IMG/VR virus record: IMGVR_UViG_3300031949_000001 | Span: 283,305 to 347,304 of that record | Direction: 5' to 3' (one strand) | Length of the DNA stretch: 64,000 nucleotides | DNA from: a virus | Taxonomy: Duplodnaviria > Heunggongvirae > Uroviricota > Caudoviricetes | Shown here: piece after piece, positions 36,259 to 44,584 of the stretch | Position numbering within the stretch: the stretch's first letter is position 1 | How the letters are laid out: each line of letters starts with the position of its first letter | The notes under the pieces: model-generated | The model's input: only the letters and a program-made list of their open reading frames with translations | Databases searched by the model: none | Told to the model about the DNA's origin: nothing | Position numbers and translations under genes: made by a program

Positions 36259-37881
36259 TTATTGCTTCGGACCATATGCCATTTTATGAGCGAATTTTAA
36301 TATTCCTGTACTCCAACCACCCAAGATGTAAGTCTTGTCATAAAATTCCGGGATAATCGTATCCTGATAACCGGCAACCTGCACCAAATAAACCTGGACA
36401 TTCGGGTTAACCTTCTTACGATAATCAGCAACAAGCTTGGCTACGTCAATGTATCGTGCATCCCACAAATAATCTCGGTACTTGGTAGCATCGGTTCCAT
36501 ACAAACCACCATGACCAGCCTGCATGTCAGAGTAGACGAATACGTGATCCCAATGCTCGTTCTGCTTGATAGCCTTATCCCAAAACAACCAGATACCGTT
36601 TTCAGTTCCTTCACCAATATCATGAGCCAATTTCTCAGCCTTTTCCAAATGGGTGAAAATAGAATTCTTCTTGGTGATTGGGAATGTCGAAAGTTTATCA
36701 CCGAATATACCAACATAACCTTCTTCGCTGATTTTTCCAGTGATAACACCCATCAAGTTAGCAATATCGTTAACAGCTACGCTGCCCAACTCGCTAGTGG
36801 TGCTACGTTGAGCCGAGCCGCTGTTATCACAAAGCGACATAACACGACCACCAAATGATGGAACTTCTGTCAATGAAACCTCAAGACAAGTCTCGATTGC
36901 GTCCAAAAGCTTTGGATTCTGAATACCAGCGCCTTCAACTGCCTTGTAGGCAGAGTAATAACGGAATGGCAATTGCTTACCTTCCTTTACACCTTCGATA
37001 AGCTTGGTTGTGTACAAGTCTGGATCAACACCATGCTGCGACAAGTTACGCAGGTTGCGCAACAGCGCCATGTGTCCCATGACTCCGACTGCTTCAGTCC
37101 AAGAATCCTTGTTAGAACCCTTTGCTGAAATCAAAGCTTCCCATGTCTCGTTGTCGCTGAGAGTGAGCTTACCCTTCATCAGCTTACCGAGCGGATCGGA
37201 TTCGTTAAAAGATGGCCAAACCATACGAACCGTGTCAACAAGGTTATACTCGTGACCTTCCATACGATACTTCGCCAACTGGTATTCATTGTATGTGGCA
37301 AGCTTGTCGCCCAATGCACGCTTCAGACGTGTTGGAATCTTACCAAATGTAGCCTTGGTGTAGGCGAAACAGTTGATAACATCATCTGGACGGAAAAGAA
37401 TGTAAGGTGCGTACTGACGCAACAGAGTTGTTCCCTTGATCTTCGGATGCTGTGCAGCACGAGCCAAGATGATCTGTGGTGTCAAACGAATGTGATCTTC
37501 ATGACGAAGTTGGTTAGCAACCTTCAATGTCTCTTCGATGTTGAAATCTAGTGCATTGTCGATAGCAGATTCCATCAACTGCGCAGGAGTCATTGAACGC
37601 CATTCGACTGGATCAACAGCGTTGAGCGTATCACGCAAATGCTTGAGTTGCTTGCTTGAAAGACGAACGTGTTCTGCATGATTGTCTGGCTTGCGGGTCT
37701 TGCCTTCTGTGCCACCGCCATTGTAGTACGTAGGTTCACCGAAAAAACAGCTTGCCGCTGCCATCTTCAATGTGTTGATAGGGTTGTTTAGAAACCATGA
37801 TGGACCGCCCATCCAGTTCAGATGTGCGGATACTGCTGCCTTAGCAGCGCGTGGGGTTGCCTTTGGGTTGACGTTGCTCAT
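36259..37881 (-). CDS. rsr: Ro60/TROVE-domain RNA-binding protein with vWA domain
   Basis: N-terminal NWMGG..., FFGEPTYY, YQLAKY, MALLRNLRNL, QLPFRYYSAY, vWA MIDAS-like CDNSGSA. Confidence 0.92.
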   Translation of the reverse strand: MSNVNPKATPRAAKAAVSAHLNWMGGPSWFLNNPINTLKMAAASCFFGEPTYYNGGGTEGKTRKPDNHAEHVRLSSKQLKHLRDTLNAVDPVEWRSMTPAQLMESAIDNALDFNIEETLKVANQLRHEDHIRLTPQIILARAAQHPKIKGTTLLRQYAPYILFRPDDVINCFAYTKATFGKIPTRLKRALGDKLATYNEYQLAKYRMEGHEYNLVDTVRMVWPSFNESDPLGKLMKGKLTLSDNETWEALISAKGSNKDSWTEAVGVMGHMALLRNLRNLSQHGVDPDLYTTKLIEGVKEGKQLPFRYYSAYKAVEGAGIQNPKLLDAIETCLEVSLTEVPSFGGRVMSLCDNSGSAQRSTTSELGSVAVNDIANLMGVITGKISEEGYVGIFGDKLSTFPITKKNSIFTHLEKAEKLAHDIGEGTENGIWLFWDKAIKQNEHWDHVFVYSDMQAGHGGLYGTDATKYRDYLWDARYIDVAKLVADYRKKVNPNVQVYLVQVAGYQDTIIPEFYDKTYILGGWSTGILKFAHKMAYGPKQ

Positions 37882-37927
37882 GTTATAGCCTCCTTAAAAC
37901 GTAACATATGCTTGTTGTAATTAAAAC

Positions 37928-37994
37928 TTACGAGAAATAATGACTAGGTTTTTGCTTTGAAATGTAAAGAAGTATCCCAATCTCCACTTCGTAA
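37928..37994 (-). ncRNA. Y-RNA-like element 1
   Basis: TTACGAAG...TTTCTCGTAA bulged-C closing helix; GAAGTGG and TACTTC motifs. Confidence 0.7.
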
Positions 37995-38049
37995 GAATCT
38001 CAAAATTAGCACAGTCTAAGTGGTGTTGTCAAGAGCATTCTAAAAATAA

Positions 38050-38109
38050 TAGGAGAAACATTTGAAGGGCGTGTTTTCATCAAAGAAGTAACCCCACAAC
38101 CACTTCCTA
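38050..38109 (-). ncRNA. Y-RNA-like element 2
   Basis: TAGGAAG...TTTCTCCTA bulged-C closing helix; same motifs. Confidence 0.7.
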
Positions 38110-38122
38110 TTAATTCAAAAAT

Positions 38123-38145
38123 AAAAGCCTCTTGTTTAAGGAGGC
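38123..38145 (-). terminator. Terminator between Y-like elements
   Basis: GCCTC-loop-GAGGC-TTTT. Confidence 0.55.
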
Positions 38146-38154
38146 AAATAAGTC

Positions 38155-38277
38155 CAGGAGAAATTCGTAAGAGTGACAGAGTTGGCTTGCGCCTTCCCTT
38201 TGATGGGATTTGAACCCATCTCGAAACTCACCTTGCGGCGAGTCGCTTTGCCGAAGTAACTCTAACACCACTTCCTG
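38155..38277 (-). ncRNA. Y-RNA-like element 3 with tRNA-like T arm (YrlA-type)
   Basis: CAGGAAG...TTTCTCCTG helix; GATGG-GTTCAAAT-CCCATC T arm; TTGACA-17-TATATA promoter just upstream. Confidence 0.8.
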
Positions 38278-38447
38278 TTCAGATCTATATATCACAGTTT
38301 GAAAAAACTGTCAAGCTTTTTTAGTGTTAAAGCAACAAACCAATATGATTTGGAGACCACCAAATTTCCTGCCCTTAGTCTAAACCTCGTATACTAGACC
38401 CCTTTTTAGGTGTTTAACAAAACATGAAATTTGTAGTTTGTTGCTTT

Positions 38448-38538
38448 TGGCGGAAGGCAGAGGAATCGAACCCCAAGCCGTTCATCACGACTCCCATTGT
38501 TTTCAAAACAAGTCCAGACCCAGGCTGGTTTACGATCC
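38448..38538 (-). tRNA. tRNA-Ser(UGA), (8/4)-type, imperfect acceptor
   Basis: TTTGAAA loop, long V arm, AA linker, G73-CCA. Confidence 0.8.
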
Positions 38539-38733
38539 AAGTGTTTTTTCTAAATCTGTTAATTCTGTATTTAATCGCGCCAAATATGGTTTAGCATATC
38601 GTTCCATTCTTTCGGCAGGATAATTTTTACTAATTTTTTCGTAATGAGCTATTTCATCCTTTTTCAATTGGATGGCATGCTCAACATTTTTACCCTTAAG
38701 CTTACGTTCGAAAAGTATTGATTTTAATTTCAT
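38530..38733 (-). CDS. Small late protein with CTS-like N-terminus
   Basis: Likely start MKLKSILFE. Confidence 0.65.
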   Translation of the reverse strand: MKLKSILFERKLKGKNVEHAIQLKKDEIAHYEKISKNYPAERMERYAKPYLARLNTELTDLEKTLGS

Positions 38734-38801
38734 TATATTTACCCAAACAGACTTCACAAGGATTTCCGTTGTTGGACGTAGACCTTTGTAACGATTAGCG
38801 T

Positions 38802-38892: not shown

Positions 38893-39145
38893 ATGGTTTG
38901 ATATTTATAGGTTTAGAATTTATTACTATATCGTATACTATATCACAAAAAGGTGGTACGTCAAGTTTTCCTTCATTGACATCGTAGTGTCTGATGCGTT
39001 CTCGCAGCCAGTGAGCATGTCGATCTGGCAAGCAGAGCGTTAAAACAGTGTTACCAGCTTCCCAAAATACATGGGTAACGGTCTCGTACACAACTTCTGT
39101 TGTTTCATCATCCGGAAAAATCCGAACTGTAAAAGTTTTTGTCAT
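38879..39145 (-). CDS. Hypothetical protein
   Basis: 88 aa ORF. Confidence 0.6.
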   Translation of the reverse strand: MTKTFTVRIFPDDETTEVVYETVTHVFWEAGNTVLTLCLPDRHAHWLRERIRHYDVNEGKLDVPPFCDIVYDIVINSKPINIKPWKWN

Positions 39146-39827
39146 ATATTATCCCTAAATCAATTAGAAATTGCTTTTCGACTCTACTTGCATCGACGTA
39201 TGTCATCGGATCTTCATCTGGATCATCATTGAATATTGTACCACCATTCTTCAGGAAGTCAACTATCTGAATGATCTTTTGTGGTGCCTTGTGGTCGCCG
39301 TTAACCATATAGAATTTCTGCTTCTGAGCGAAAAGAAGATCGATAACTTTCTGATCAATTATCAGTGATTCATCTTCGGTCTGATTTCTACCTTTAGGAT
39401 TGTACTTCTTTGTACGCTTAAGAAAAATGTTTATATTGTCGAAGGAATTAAAAGCCTCGTCAACCAAGGGGAGGAGATTTTTGTAATAGTCTTGGGAAAT
39501 GTACATATGACAAAGAAGCAACGGACTGTCCGTGACGCAATATTTGACTCCGTATTGAACCAATCTGCGTTGACGATGATGCTGTTCGGTGAAAATATCG
39601 GCTTGTTCGTAGAACATGTTCCATCGTTGCTGATAGACTAAATCCTTCGGGAATTCTGTGACTAGTTCAACATCATGGTTAGCTAATTTCATTAGATGGA
39701 ATAAACCAGAAGCCACGGTGCTCTTGCCTGCACCTGGACCAGCAAATAAGTTTATTACTATCAGATCTTTATTTTTTGTTATTGGTGTCTGAGGTAGGGA
39801 CATTGTTATTCCATAGTTATTTTCCAA
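39108..39827 (-). CDS. AAA_28 / NadR-kinase-like P-loop protein
   Basis: INLFAGPGAGKST, VELVTEFPKD, VTDSPLLL. Confidence 0.75.
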   Translation of the reverse strand: MENNYGITMSLPQTPITKNKDLIVINLFAGPGAGKSTVASGLFHLMKLANHDVELVTEFPKDLVYQQRWNMFYEQADIFTEQHHRQRRLVQYGVKYCVTDSPLLLCHMYISQDYYKNLLPLVDEAFNSFDNINIFLKRTKKYNPKGRNQTEDESLIIDQKVIDLLFAQKQKFYMVNGDHKAPQKIIQIVDFLKNGGTIFNDDPDEDPMTYVDASRVEKQFLIDLGIIYDKNFYSSDFSG

Positions 39828-39963: not shown

Positions 39964-41100
39964 TCAATCGTCGTTGTCACTACCAACAAAATAATCAACA
40001 ATGTGTAGGTGATCGTCAAACATGACTTCTTCATCAAGTTCGTTTAGAGGAACCCATTTAGCTTTGTCCGTACCATCATCAACATCTTGACCACCTTTAA
40101 CTTTCGGAAGAGGACCGGGTTCGAGTTGAATATAAAACGCGTGGGTTATGATACGCCCAACTTCGGAGCGATCTTCATCATCAAATACGTGGTGCTTTTT
40201 AATTGAACCAATCAAAACTTTTTGTGGTACCTTGATTCTGGTTTCCTCATCAAGTTCGCGTAACATTCCAGCTTGAATTTTTTCGGTTGTCATCAAATAG
40301 CCTCCTGGCAATGCCCACAAACTTTTCCCAGGAGAAGCGCTACGACGCACCAAAAGAACGTGACCAGACTGTACCACGACCGCATCTACTGTCGTATGAT
40401 TCACGTCGTATGGCGCAGGTTCCCATTGTTTCTTCGTCTTCTTAATGTGCTCATACTCGGACTTAACGTATTGATAAGCTTCCGTTTCGCGAAACTTTTG
40501 TAGAAAAAGATATGTTCCTGCTGGTACAGCACTCTCAATGTATTTCAGATTTTTGCCTTCGAAATAGAGTTGACGGATTTCCGTTGCGCTGATGTTCTCA
40601 TTCAGAGGGTGTTCAATAGGATTTCCCCATTGCGGGAACATCTTCAAGTAATAGGAAGAATCATCCTTTGAATGACCAATGATTCCGATATTAGGATCAC
40701 GCATCTCCCAAAGCTGCCAATGTCCGTTGTAATGTAGCCCTCGCCGAGGACGCTCGTTACGACCAACGAAGTCATCAACAGTCTTCTGAACACGTTCAGC
40801 CCACTTTTCATCGTTGTACTTCTTGTCGCGAATTGGAAGGATAATAACCCGATTGCTAAGTGGCGTATCCAGACGAATACCTATCCTAAATAAATTAAGA
40901 TGTTGAAGAGATTTCTCAATCATCTCTTTTCTTTCCTCGAATTTCCAAGGATTCTTGAATTTTCGTGGTTGGAATGAACTTCCAACTAAAACGATGACGT
41001 GTTCTGCGATGGTTAATCCGTGCTGAATAATCTCTATATGACCTACATGGGGCGGCTCAAATCGTCCAATAAAAACCAAATAATCTAATTTCTTATTCAT
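39964..41100 (-). CDS. nadM: Bifunctional NMN adenylyltransferase / Nudix (ADP-ribose) hydrolase
   Basis: FIGRFEPPHVGH (HxGH), KNPW, ISATEIR, and WALPGG...RELDEET Nudix box. Confidence 0.93.
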   Translation of the reverse strand: MNKKLDYLVFIGRFEPPHVGHIEIIQHGLTIAEHVIVLVGSSFQPRKFKNPWKFEERKEMIEKSLQHLNLFRIGIRLDTPLSNRVIILPIRDKKYNDEKWAERVQKTVDDFVGRNERPRRGLHYNGHWQLWEMRDPNIGIIGHSKDDSSYYLKMFPQWGNPIEHPLNENISATEIRQLYFEGKNLKYIESAVPAGTYLFLQKFRETEAYQYVKSEYEHIKKTKKQWEPAPYDVNHTTVDAVVVQSGHVLLVRRSASPGKSLWALPGGYLMTTEKIQAGMLRELDEETRIKVPQKVLIGSIKKHHVFDDEDRSEVGRIITHAFYIQLEPGPLPKVKGGQDVDDGTDKAKWVPLNELDEEVMFDDHLHIVDYFVGSDNDD

Positions 41101-43417: not shown

Positions 43418-44584
43418 TCAAGCAAAAGATAGGTTTATAACGTCAAACGTTGCGTAATAATCGCTTGCATTTGGAGCAGCAAATGATGCCTCTTTTGTTG
43501 CAAATGGTAGAATTATTTCACCATCTTTTTTATACTTCCGACCGTGAGTTACCATAGTGTGCGGACAATAGAATAAACCACCATCAAGTTCTCCAGAGCC
43601 GCCTTTATATCCAATGAGTATTTTATCGATTGGTGTATGTGTATTATCATAATATGTTGGAAGGTATGAATACACATCAATGGAACCATTGAGTTTACCG
43701 ACGAGCATTGTACAATTCGGACCCTTGAACGATCCCTTCAAAGCCGGTGCGAATACCGCATGCTGCGAAACCTGCAAGACCGAAACCATCATCGGAGAAC
43801 ATAATATCCAATTACCAGGACCACGGTGAGTTTTACGAGCTATATCATTAGCAGTCTTGCTAATGTTTATAATGACTGACGAAAATCTATCAGCAATGAA
43901 AGCAGGCTGCTCTGGATCTTTTTTCTGAAAAATGGTAGAGAAATCAAAGTTCGGATATTTTGCACTTATGTCGATAAGTTTTTGAATGTATCGATCATCC
44001 AATTCTTGAACAAGCGCAGATGCGACTATTTCTTCCAATTCCTTTGCAGCATTCCAATCTTTGTGGTTACGTTCTAGGTTTTTAATGCAACTGACAGAAA
44101 TTCCTGTCTTGCATTTTTGAGTTAATGTGGATACATCACTAGCAACGACGTTTAATGACATAGAACGTCCACCAGTACCTTCTAGTTCAGGATTATCTTC
44201 GTACCTATATTGAAAGTAATAAACCTTTCCATCATTAGTCTTCATTGGTTGAGTACCAAGAAGTTCTTTGACAACGGTGCCTTCTGCGACATGTTTAGCC
44301 ATATTTTCATAATCTAATCCTTCAATCAAAGTACCTTCGCGCTCTCGACGGGCGACGTACTTGTGTTGATTTGTTAGAATGGCTTTTAAGTATTGCTCTG
44401 GACGACGATCTAGATACTCGGCAACTCCACTAAAATCATCCGTTTCTTCGTTATATGATTGAGTGGTGCGAAAGACAGCAGTGTCTTTTAGAAGTTCTTT
44501 CTTTTTTTCAATCCATGGATTATTTGGTATGTTTGCCATATACTTTTCCTCTTCGGTTGTAAAAGTATATAGCCCGGAAAACAC
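43418..44584 (-). CDS. T4 gp23/gp24-type capsid protein paralog (vertex-like)
   Basis: IARKTHRGPGNWILCSP, VGKLNG...VY, LIGYKG...DGGLFYCP motifs of gp23-family proteins. Confidence 0.8.
   Translation of the reverse strand: MFSGLYTFTTEEEKYMANIPNNPWIEKKKELLKDTAVFRTTQSYNEETDDFSGVAEYLDRRPEQYLKAILTNQHKYVARREREGTLIEGLDYENMAKHVAEGTVVKELLGTQPMKTNDGKVYYFQYRYEDNPELEGTGGRSMSLNVVASDVSTLTQKCKTGISVSCIKNLERNHKDWNAAKELEEIVASALVQELDDRYIQKLIDISAKYPNFDFSTIFQKKDPEQPAFIADRFSSVIINISKTANDIARKTHRGPGNWILCSPMMVSVLQVSQHAVFAPALKGSFKGPNCTMLVGKLNGSIDVYSYLPTYYDNTHTPIDKILIGYKGGSGELDGGLFYCPHTMVTHGRKYKKDGEIILPFATKEASFAAPNASDYYATFDVINLSFA

Follow-up and report, generated by a model that had tools for sequence, protein, structure and literature searches.

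The 64,000-nucleotide stretch analyzed here (the window) is bases 283305-347304 of a 378,912-bp phage record in IMG/VR (IMGVR_UViG_3300031949_000001). On its minus strand a gene for a Ro60 protein is preceded by three RNA-like elements, A, B and C, which are likely to be separately transcribed Y RNAs, the partners of the phage's own Ro60. It is from a family of related RNAs, from the structure of that family, from its linkage to Ro60 genes and from the fold of the Ro60 protein, all of them observed, that we infer transcription of the elements, their binding to Ro60 and an effector. The features concerned are the following:

36259-37881, minus strand: Ro60 gene (TROVE HEAT-repeat ring plus vWA domain), 540 amino acids
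37927-37995, minus strand: element C, candidate minimal Y RNA, 69 nt, 52.5 bits with covariance model R1 (see below)
38003-38032, minus strand: promoter-like site for C (TTGACA, 18-nt spacer, extended -10 sequence TGn-TAATTT)
38047-38112, minus strand: element B, candidate minimal Y RNA, 66 nt, 48.2 bits with R1
38117-38145, minus strand: intrinsic-terminator-like hairpin and U tract directly after A (5-bp G+C stem, 9-nt loop)
38155-38277, minus strand: element A, 123-nt Y RNA candidate, from direct reading and R1
38286-38314, minus strand: promoter-like site for A (TTGACA, 17-nt spacer, TATATA), ending 8 nt before A

Three RNA-like elements upstream of Ro60

The roughly 400 nt that precede the Ro60 open reading frame (ORF) on the minus strand hold no credible ORF and are occupied by three RNA-like units. 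(A 61-amino-acid ORF with a GTG start, 38110-38295 on the minus strand, covers all of element A and is most likely spurious.) A preliminary description of the window had put three minus-strand elements upstream of a TROVE/vWA gene, and that is where they are found, with boundaries that the closing stems widen by 1-3 nt. The layout that it proposed (GAAGTGG, then TACTTC, then TTTCTC) can be read in all three: a short stem strand is followed by GAAGUGG, by 8-9 nt and by UUACUUC (AUACUUC in C); on the 3' side, UUUCUC leads into a strand complementary to the 3-7 nt located before GAAG. The closing stems of A, B and C differ in sequence yet remain complementary. The pattern GAAGTGG-N8-16-TACTTC occurs exactly four times in the 378,912-bp genome (A, B, C and one distant copy), the reversed control pattern not once.

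The segment from the closing stem to UUACUUC is referred to here as the handle. C has a closing stem of 7 bp, the handle, a second helix of equal length and, at its apex, an A-rich loop (z-score of the minimum free energy (MFE) -2.7; E about 1e-10 to 1e-12 with R1). B (E about 1e-9 to 1e-11 with R1) and C share an open loop of 13-20 nt; a run of five Us (38042-38046) directly follows B, and C likewise ends in a U run. Element A is more elaborate (MFE -45.2 kcal/mol, z -3.1). Its handle encloses a hairpin resembling the variable (V) arm of tRNA (38225-38244), a T arm (38202-38220) and an acceptor-like hairpin capped by a GNRA loop (38178-38198), and A matches R1 end to end despite this 79-nt insert (15.9 bits, E 0.0017, filters off). 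The tRNA-like T arm already noticed in this longest element is borne out: its T-loop is canonical, and in a relative with a 99%-identical Ro60 two pairs of its stem have changed on both sides in a compensatory way, one from A-U and the other from U-A, each to C-G. The D arm is absent from A, and B and C have no tRNA-like part. "One tRNA mimic and two minimal Y RNAs", as the locus was first characterized, is accordingly a fair description of three units that match R1 from end to end, provided that the mimic is understood to lack a D arm.

Signals that could make separate transcription units of A and C are also present. The start predicted from the promoter-like site for C is the first base of the C closing stem. 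(A technical note: a consensus promoter scan omitted this site, which has only 4/6 matches in its -10 sequence, and a terminator scan missed the hairpin after A, the loop of which exceeds 8 nt; both were read directly from the sequence.) The terminator-like hairpin may overlap a weak promoter for B.

Two metagenome contigs, L319 and L322, encode Ro60 proteins that are, respectively, 99% and 94% identical to that of the window, and both keep A, B, C, the two promoter-like sites and the terminator-like hairpin. Element C is 100% identical in L319 and 89% in L322, element B 98.5% and 97%; the C promoter-like site is identical in both contigs and the terminator-like hairpin fully conserved, while the site for A has an invariant -10 and a conserved -35 sequence. 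The acceptor-like hairpin of A shows a G-C to U-A exchange in these relatives and a change of its GNRA loop from GCAA to GUGA. In L322, the segment from the A promoter through the end of C is 94% identical to the window, as against 43% and 32% for its flanks.

A family of Ro60-linked RNAs

Searching cultured phages for near-identical DNA, and scanning IMG/VR with the single protein, retrieved no relatives of the locus; a query in the form of a protein alignment retrieved 80 IMG/VR loci encoding the same clade of Ro60. A regular-expression search of these loci for handle units found about 65 beside Ro60 homologs, all on the Ro60 strand. The consensus reads, on the 5' side, stem 1 strand, GAAGCGG, a 9-nt strand of helix 2 and UUACUUC; then a variable body of 20-200 nt; and on the 3' side the other strand of helix 2, A-W-U-A-U-U-C-U-C and the other strand of stem 1. 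In a plain MAFFT alignment of 19 short units, the two helices pair in 84% of cells, compared with 40-51% in slid controls, and the observed covariation was reached by none of 500 shuffles.

The covariance model R1 was built from that alignment and applied, with a cut-off of E<=1e-3, to 82 phage-side sources (the window and 81 phage Ro60 loci). It yields 104 matches, spread over 59 of the 82 at 1-6 per locus; every one has the orientation of Ro60, and almost all adjoin the gene, most of them less than 700 nt away. Over 80 bacterial Ro60 loci R1 finds 30 further matches, every one a short way upstream of Ro60 and on its strand, in Polyangiales, Chloroflexota, Deinococcus xinjiangensis and others. 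(Four loci labelled as bacterial metagenome-assembled genomes, L220, L267, L280 and L295, have long tRNA arrays after Ro60 and seem to be phage or prophage DNA that was binned together with host DNA; L284, also labelled bacterial, is the same contig as IMG/VR locus L033.) Among 87 distinct sequences aligned by R1, 88.4% of cells are paired (40-48% in slid controls) and 467 show double changes (87-147 in slid controls), a value reached by none of 500 shuffles. This second alignment is fitted to the model; the independent check is the MAFFT result.

How far does the pairing extend? Stem 1 is paired in 93% of cells across the 87 homologs, with double changes at six of its seven pairs, so that the covarying end helix of the preliminary description stands. 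At the base of the stem, G1:C and A2:U covary (the latter as AU 76, UA 2, UG 2 and GC 1): GUAG copies have G or A opposite the second base and a GGAG copy has C. The bulged-C register that had been drawn for this helix, in which the third and fourth bases of GAAG pair with U-U, has fared less well: it can form in A, B and C and is not conserved across the family, where the third base varies (A 53, U 29, C 4) and the position opposite does not change to compensate. In an alternative register the third base is bulged and G4 faces the first C of the 3' CUC; both of these bases are invariant. A search of the internal loop for further covarying pairs found none: mutual information there peaks at 0.17, as against 0.36 for A2:U. 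The invariant positions are unpaired bases: G1 and G4 of the 5' motif, U-A-C-x-U-C and the 3' C-U-C. Beyond the pairs at the stem base, the loop as seen by comparative analysis is conserved in sequence, and its pairing is not inferable from comparison. (A local 6-bp hairpin, GAAGUG/UACUUC, was considered and rejected: GAUG, GACG and GUAG variants leave CUUC unchanged, without compensation.)

The same data bear on whether these repeats function at the level of DNA, as operators or recombination sites whose structure is a by-product of inverted repeats. Each unit is indeed bounded by an inverted repeat and the units stand in tandem. However, all 134 R1 matches lie on one strand relative to Ro60; G:U cells exceed A:C cells by 79 to 22, as is expected for RNA read from the Ro60 strand; and the stems change freely in sequence while unpaired loop bases are invariant, the opposite of the behavior expected of a DNA palindrome that binds a protein. 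The DNA-level explanation is close to refuted, and the original reading of the elements as RNA is supported.

Another group of handle RNAs, 160-230 nt long, has a shared, distinct body without tRNA features and without a match to any Rfam family (L042:561-763, L051:2072-2267, L058:2569-2777, L064:2524-2738, L068:2577-2806, L073:833-993, L078:2526-2749, L081:2448-2677, L083:834-1054 and L086:2458-2674). This body contains, for example, ...GACUAGAAAU... and, before helix 2, a hairpin with a GNRA-type cap; it is possibly a second effector module.

The Ro60 protein

The identification of the downstream gene as a phage Ro60 is confirmed on several counts. Its product matches Pfam TROVE (PF05731) at 54.9 bits (cut-off 23; E 1.1e-14), and the sole solved structures that its sequence matches are those of the Ro60 of Thermus phage phiLo (PDB 9KOP, E 4.7e-20). 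An AlphaFold model made with 17 homologs has a mean predicted local distance difference test score (pLDDT) of 78.6 and a predicted template modeling score (pTM) of 0.75. Foldseek places Ro60 structures at all of the top 13 PDB positions, full-length, with E values of 1e-16 to 2e-10; they include 9KOP, 1YVP, 9NEN and 2NVO and come from phiLo, Xenopus, human and D. radiodurans. Helical repeats make up residues 76-336 of the model, and an alpha/beta fold residues 343-521, with vWA domains among the lower Foldseek matches. The MIDAS motif (metal-ion-dependent adhesion site), D352-N-S354-G-S356 (DxSxS), is invariant in the 17 homologs. Judged by sequence and model, the 36259-37881 ORF encodes a true Ro60. 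Its clade is large, with thousands of homologs at about 55% identity and with members in Polyangiales, Chloroflexota and a Deinococcus; gp540 of Bacillus phage G is 36% identical to the window protein.

Bacillus phage G and the connection to YrlA

The link between the handle and YrlA, the tRNA-like Y RNA of bacteria, is made by phage G (NC_023719, locus L005). A 1060-bp unannotated gap ahead of gene product gp540 contains five handle units, and a sixth lies between gp538 and gp539. (The handle RNAs at L005:780-935 and 2254-2950, which correspond to about 405190-405350 and 406660-407360 of NC_023719, are in stretches that are unannotated in GenBank, in a phage that can be cultured.) In the unit at L005:780-935, the handle encloses V, T, closed acceptor and D arms in that order, and this core scores 36.2 bits (E 1.5e-6) against the Rfam YrlA family RF02553, which is below the 69-bit threshold. 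Finding a YrlA-type domain inside a handle implies that the handle is the predicted Ro60-binding module of YrlA-type Y RNAs in this clade of Ro60.

The window elements themselves are further removed from YrlA. They have the GAAG core of the published motif GNCGAA(N0-1)G, which C matches at 6/7 and A and B at 5/7 positions; the G-N-C part is not kept. UUAC or AUAC stands at the distance expected for YUAY (about 15 nt) in all three, and the permuted tRNA domain of YrlA (T arm, closed acceptor stem, D arm) is not found in A, B or C. The handle is compared with Salmonella YrlA on the basis of the published description (PMC4201824).

Handles on tRNAs

The distant fourth copy of the motif is the following:

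44054-44184 of the genome (L001:1439-1569), 239 kb before the window start: tRNA(CAU)-like gene with a handle arm

This gene begins five bases after a tRNA-Glu gene, inside a tRNA cluster. Its RNA would have a free 7-bp acceptor stem, a D arm, a T arm and an encoded A-CCA end, and between the D arm and an anticodon-like hairpin (U33, CAU, A37) it has an extra arm of 56 nt that is the handle, circularly permuted and closed by a GAAA loop. R2, a model of the permuted handle, has this copy as its sole match on the genome (61.9 bits). The design recurs in three other viral contigs (L165:5367-5498; L193:13545-13681, minus strand; L300:10344-10487), one of which has two copies; all three encode the same clade of Ro60, at 43-44% identity, and among these RNAs is a tRNA-Tyr-like one, which has an anticodon arm as well as a long variable arm. 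(Most of what a loose pattern scan for permuted handles brought up was chance matches in coding DNA, and copies were accepted only if a hairpin lay between the halves.)

Handles and tRNAs are also combined in other ways. In each of three handle RNAs that stand in tandem at L050:4672-5059, the handle surrounds an entire tRNA-like sequence whose parts are in the normal order; these units score 58.9, 37.8 and 36.4 bits against Rfam tRNA, and ARAGORN reads Lys-UUU and Thr-GGU. (The layout resembles that of a pre-tRNA whose leader and trailer form a putative Ro60 site.) Permuted tRNA-like bodies lie within the handle in phage G, L038 and L041. By these comparisons, the handle behaves as a module that is joined to tRNA-like bodies in several topologies, and Ro60 is probably loaded also onto a tRNA-shaped RNA through the handle arm of 44054-44184. 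One can go further and suppose that phages graft the handle onto tRNAs as a portable module of RNA, letting Ro60 ride on an RNA still recognized by tRNA-processing enzymes. This is a tentative idea, and we regard it as rather doubtful. If it is true, aminoacyl-tRNA synthetase, EF-Tu or the ribosome possibly still recognize the Ro60-carrying RNA, and the tRNA mimicry of bacterial Y RNAs would be tied directly to real tRNA biology.

The locus had been proposed to specify a complete Ro60-Y RNA ribonucleoprotein. The family and the YrlA link through phage G support such a particle; its set of RNAs is not complete in the window, the fourth lying outside.

What might the RNAs do?

The proposed particle would consist of Ro60 and four RNAs: A, B, C and the 44054-44184 RNA. 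The ends of each RNA would pair in the closing stem; next would come an asymmetric, conserved internal loop (5' GAAGYGG opposite 3' AWUAUUCUC), a second helix and the invariant UUACUUC. The handle would be the docking site of Ro60, homologous to the Ro60-binding module of YrlA. The bodies beyond it differ (an A/C-rich single-stranded loop in B and C, a partial tRNA mimic in A) and, by analogy with the systems of D. radiodurans, Salmonella and Thermus phage phiLo, would tether Ro60 to other factors. The likeliest of these is a host 3'-to-5' exoribonuclease such as PNPase, and the phage would in this way redirect the decay or quality control of structured RNA during infection. A search of the genome found no gene for RtcB (which the preliminary description had suggested looking for), a CCA-adding enzyme, PNPase/RNase PH or RNase II/R; because the phage encodes no exonuclease of its own, any exonuclease partner would be the host's, as in phiLo. 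Two genes of the RNA ligase family are present.

Might the RNAs instead be, chiefly, tRNA-related decoys or protected forms, with the handle recruiting Ro60 as a shield or chaperone against host nucleases that cut tRNA in defense, and with no tethering of an exonuclease? In favor are the three topologies in which handles and tRNA-like bodies are combined (a permuted body, a handle around a whole tRNA, and a handle arm on a tRNA whose acceptor end is free) and a genome with RNA ligases and without an exonuclease. But B, C and most members of the family have no tRNA-like part, no nuclease target site can be named, and the published biochemistry of Ro60 and Y RNAs points to exonuclease tethering. 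We consider a predominant decoy or shield function very unlikely.

A different objection is that A, B and C might act in cis within the leader of the Ro60 mRNA, for instance as autoregulatory attenuators to which Ro60 binds and which set read-through or translation. All three lie upstream of Ro60 on the coding strand, as do copies within 700 nt in most loci of the family; C, which ends in a U run, stops 45 nt short of the start codon of Ro60, and in this interval a separate promoter for the gene is not evident. On the other hand, many loci have copies downstream of Ro60 (L043-L050, L069 and L084), the fourth copy in this genome is 239 kb away from the window, A and C have promoter-like sites of their own, A is followed by its own terminator-like hairpin, and one of the phage G copies is a YrlA-type RNA that lies 2 kb upstream, with a gene in between. 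A cis-acting leader is therefore an unlikely explanation of the set. Element C may nevertheless act additionally in cis on the Ro60 mRNA, and such a role may coexist with one in trans.

The interpretation of A, B and C as Y RNAs acting in trans has weaknesses that should be stated together. 1) The phage is uncultured; transcripts, binding and processing of A, B and C are predictions. 2) B has no clear promoter of its own, and the position of C, ending 45 nt ahead of the Ro60 start codon, makes cis action possible. 3) Y RNAs are usually quoted as being 80-130 nt long; A, at 123 nt, is within this range, while B (66 nt) and C (69 nt) are below it. 4) A search with RF02553, as originally suggested for these elements, gives no match to A, B or C at E<=10 over 37700-38800; its best match in the whole genome, at another place, is 11.8 bits (curated threshold 69 bits). 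Rfam as a whole, at gathering thresholds and at E<=10, assigns A, B and C to no family and yields only a chance-level fragment of a tmRNA T arm in A. 5) R1 has no match at the Ro60 loci of Gordonia phage Neville, Thermus phage phiLo and Desulfovibrio phage SRB7757 (in the last, whose Ro60 is 36% identical, there is no handle copy within 2.5 kb of the gene), which indicates that the handle sequence is specific to its clade. Homology of the handle to the Y RNAs of these three phages would be a matter of layout only. 6) PNPase as the effector is proposed purely by analogy.

Neighboring genes

Just upstream of the A promoter-like site, at 38451-38539 on the minus strand, lies a gene that resembles tRNA-Ser(UGA), has a long variable arm and encodes its G-CCA; its 5' end overlaps the stop codon of the ORF at 38530-38757. 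Its score on Rfam tRNA-Sec, 32 bits, is below threshold, and ARAGORN missed it; two of its seven acceptor pairs are mismatched, and the acceptor stem is perfect in the 94% relative, L322. Two genes farther upstream, 39108-39827 and 39964-41100, both on the minus strand, look like enzymes of nicotinamide adenine dinucleotide (NAD) salvage: the first resembles an AAA_28 NadR-like kinase, the second a cytidylyltransferase-like and NUDIX fusion of the NadM type. Gordonia phage Neville likewise has nicotinamide phosphoribosyltransferase and nucleotidyltransferase genes just upstream of its Ro-like gene.

Comparison with known Ro60-Y RNA systems

Ro60 and Y RNAs are conserved from bacteria to humans, and a phage Ro60 with adjacent Y RNAs is already on record (PMC4201824, PMC12135203). 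Bacterial and phage YrlA RNAs, reported in 22 phages, are encoded beside Ro60 on the same strand, with GNCGAA(N)G near the 5' end, YUAY at nt 22-25 and a permuted tRNA domain of V, T, closed acceptor and D arms (PMC4201824). The window locus resembles the YrlA/YrlB loci of Salmonella, M. smegmatis and mycobacteriophages (RF02553) in its position beside Ro60 on the same strand, in the paired ends, in the 5' GAAG with YUAY about 15 nt on, and in having one tRNA-like RNA while the others are minimal, B and C being like YrlB. It differs in several respects. In Salmonella and M. smegmatis YrlA only the 5' strand of the internal loop is reported to be recognizable (PMC4201824); here both strands and the full UUACUUC are conserved and the published G-N-C is not. 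A has no D arm, and there are up to six handle copies per locus.

In Thermus phage phiLo, the Ro60 is the best match among solved structures, in sequence and in fold, to that of the window, and the phage gene again has small RNAs (Yrl1 and Yrl2; PDB 9KOP, 9L5Y) directly upstream. These two Y-like RNAs bind the phage Ro60 and, together with Ro60, the host PNPase; phiLo encodes no PNPase and was shown in vitro to make use of the host enzyme (PMC12135203). The differences are again substantial: the proteins are about 21-24% identical, R1 finds nothing at the phiLo locus, and the two phiLo RNAs are defined by a CGAA motif, with none reported to be tRNA-like. The Rsr-Yrn1-PNPase complex of D. radiodurans (RYPER) combines a paired-end Ro60 site with a tRNA resemblance confined to the T arm, and in these respects is comparable with element A; the single-stranded body of its Y RNA binds PNPase. 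No sequence similarity to the window RNAs was detected.

For the 44054-44184 RNA, the nearest counterpart is M. smegmatis YrlA, which is also a Ro60-handle RNA with a tRNA-like CCA acceptor end. There, the free CCA end is gained through cleavage by RNase P (PMC4201824), and cutting the closed loop leaves a nicked RNA in two pieces. In the phage RNA, the free acceptor and CCA are encoded in one chain that follows the normal order of a tRNA and retains a CAU loop like that of an anticodon. There is thus a precedent for a tRNA 3' end on a Ro60-handle RNA, but not for such an RNA encoded as a single chain. Neither the papers searched nor Rfam at curated thresholds was found to contain this clade-wide handle, multi-copy arrays of minimal Y RNAs or the handle as an arm of a complete tRNA.

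What the comparison adds to the known systems is a compact unit defined by its sequence, with two covarying helices around invariant loop bases, and thereby a likely job for the 56-nt tRNA arm. The bodies that this handle carries (bare loops, partial or permuted tRNA mimics and whole tRNAs) or to which it is attached (a tRNA with a free CCA end, of which it is an arm) are a natural set of variants. With six copies in the culturable Bacillus phage G, this set could be used to map the recognition of Y RNAs by Ro60 and the partners that each body brings to it.

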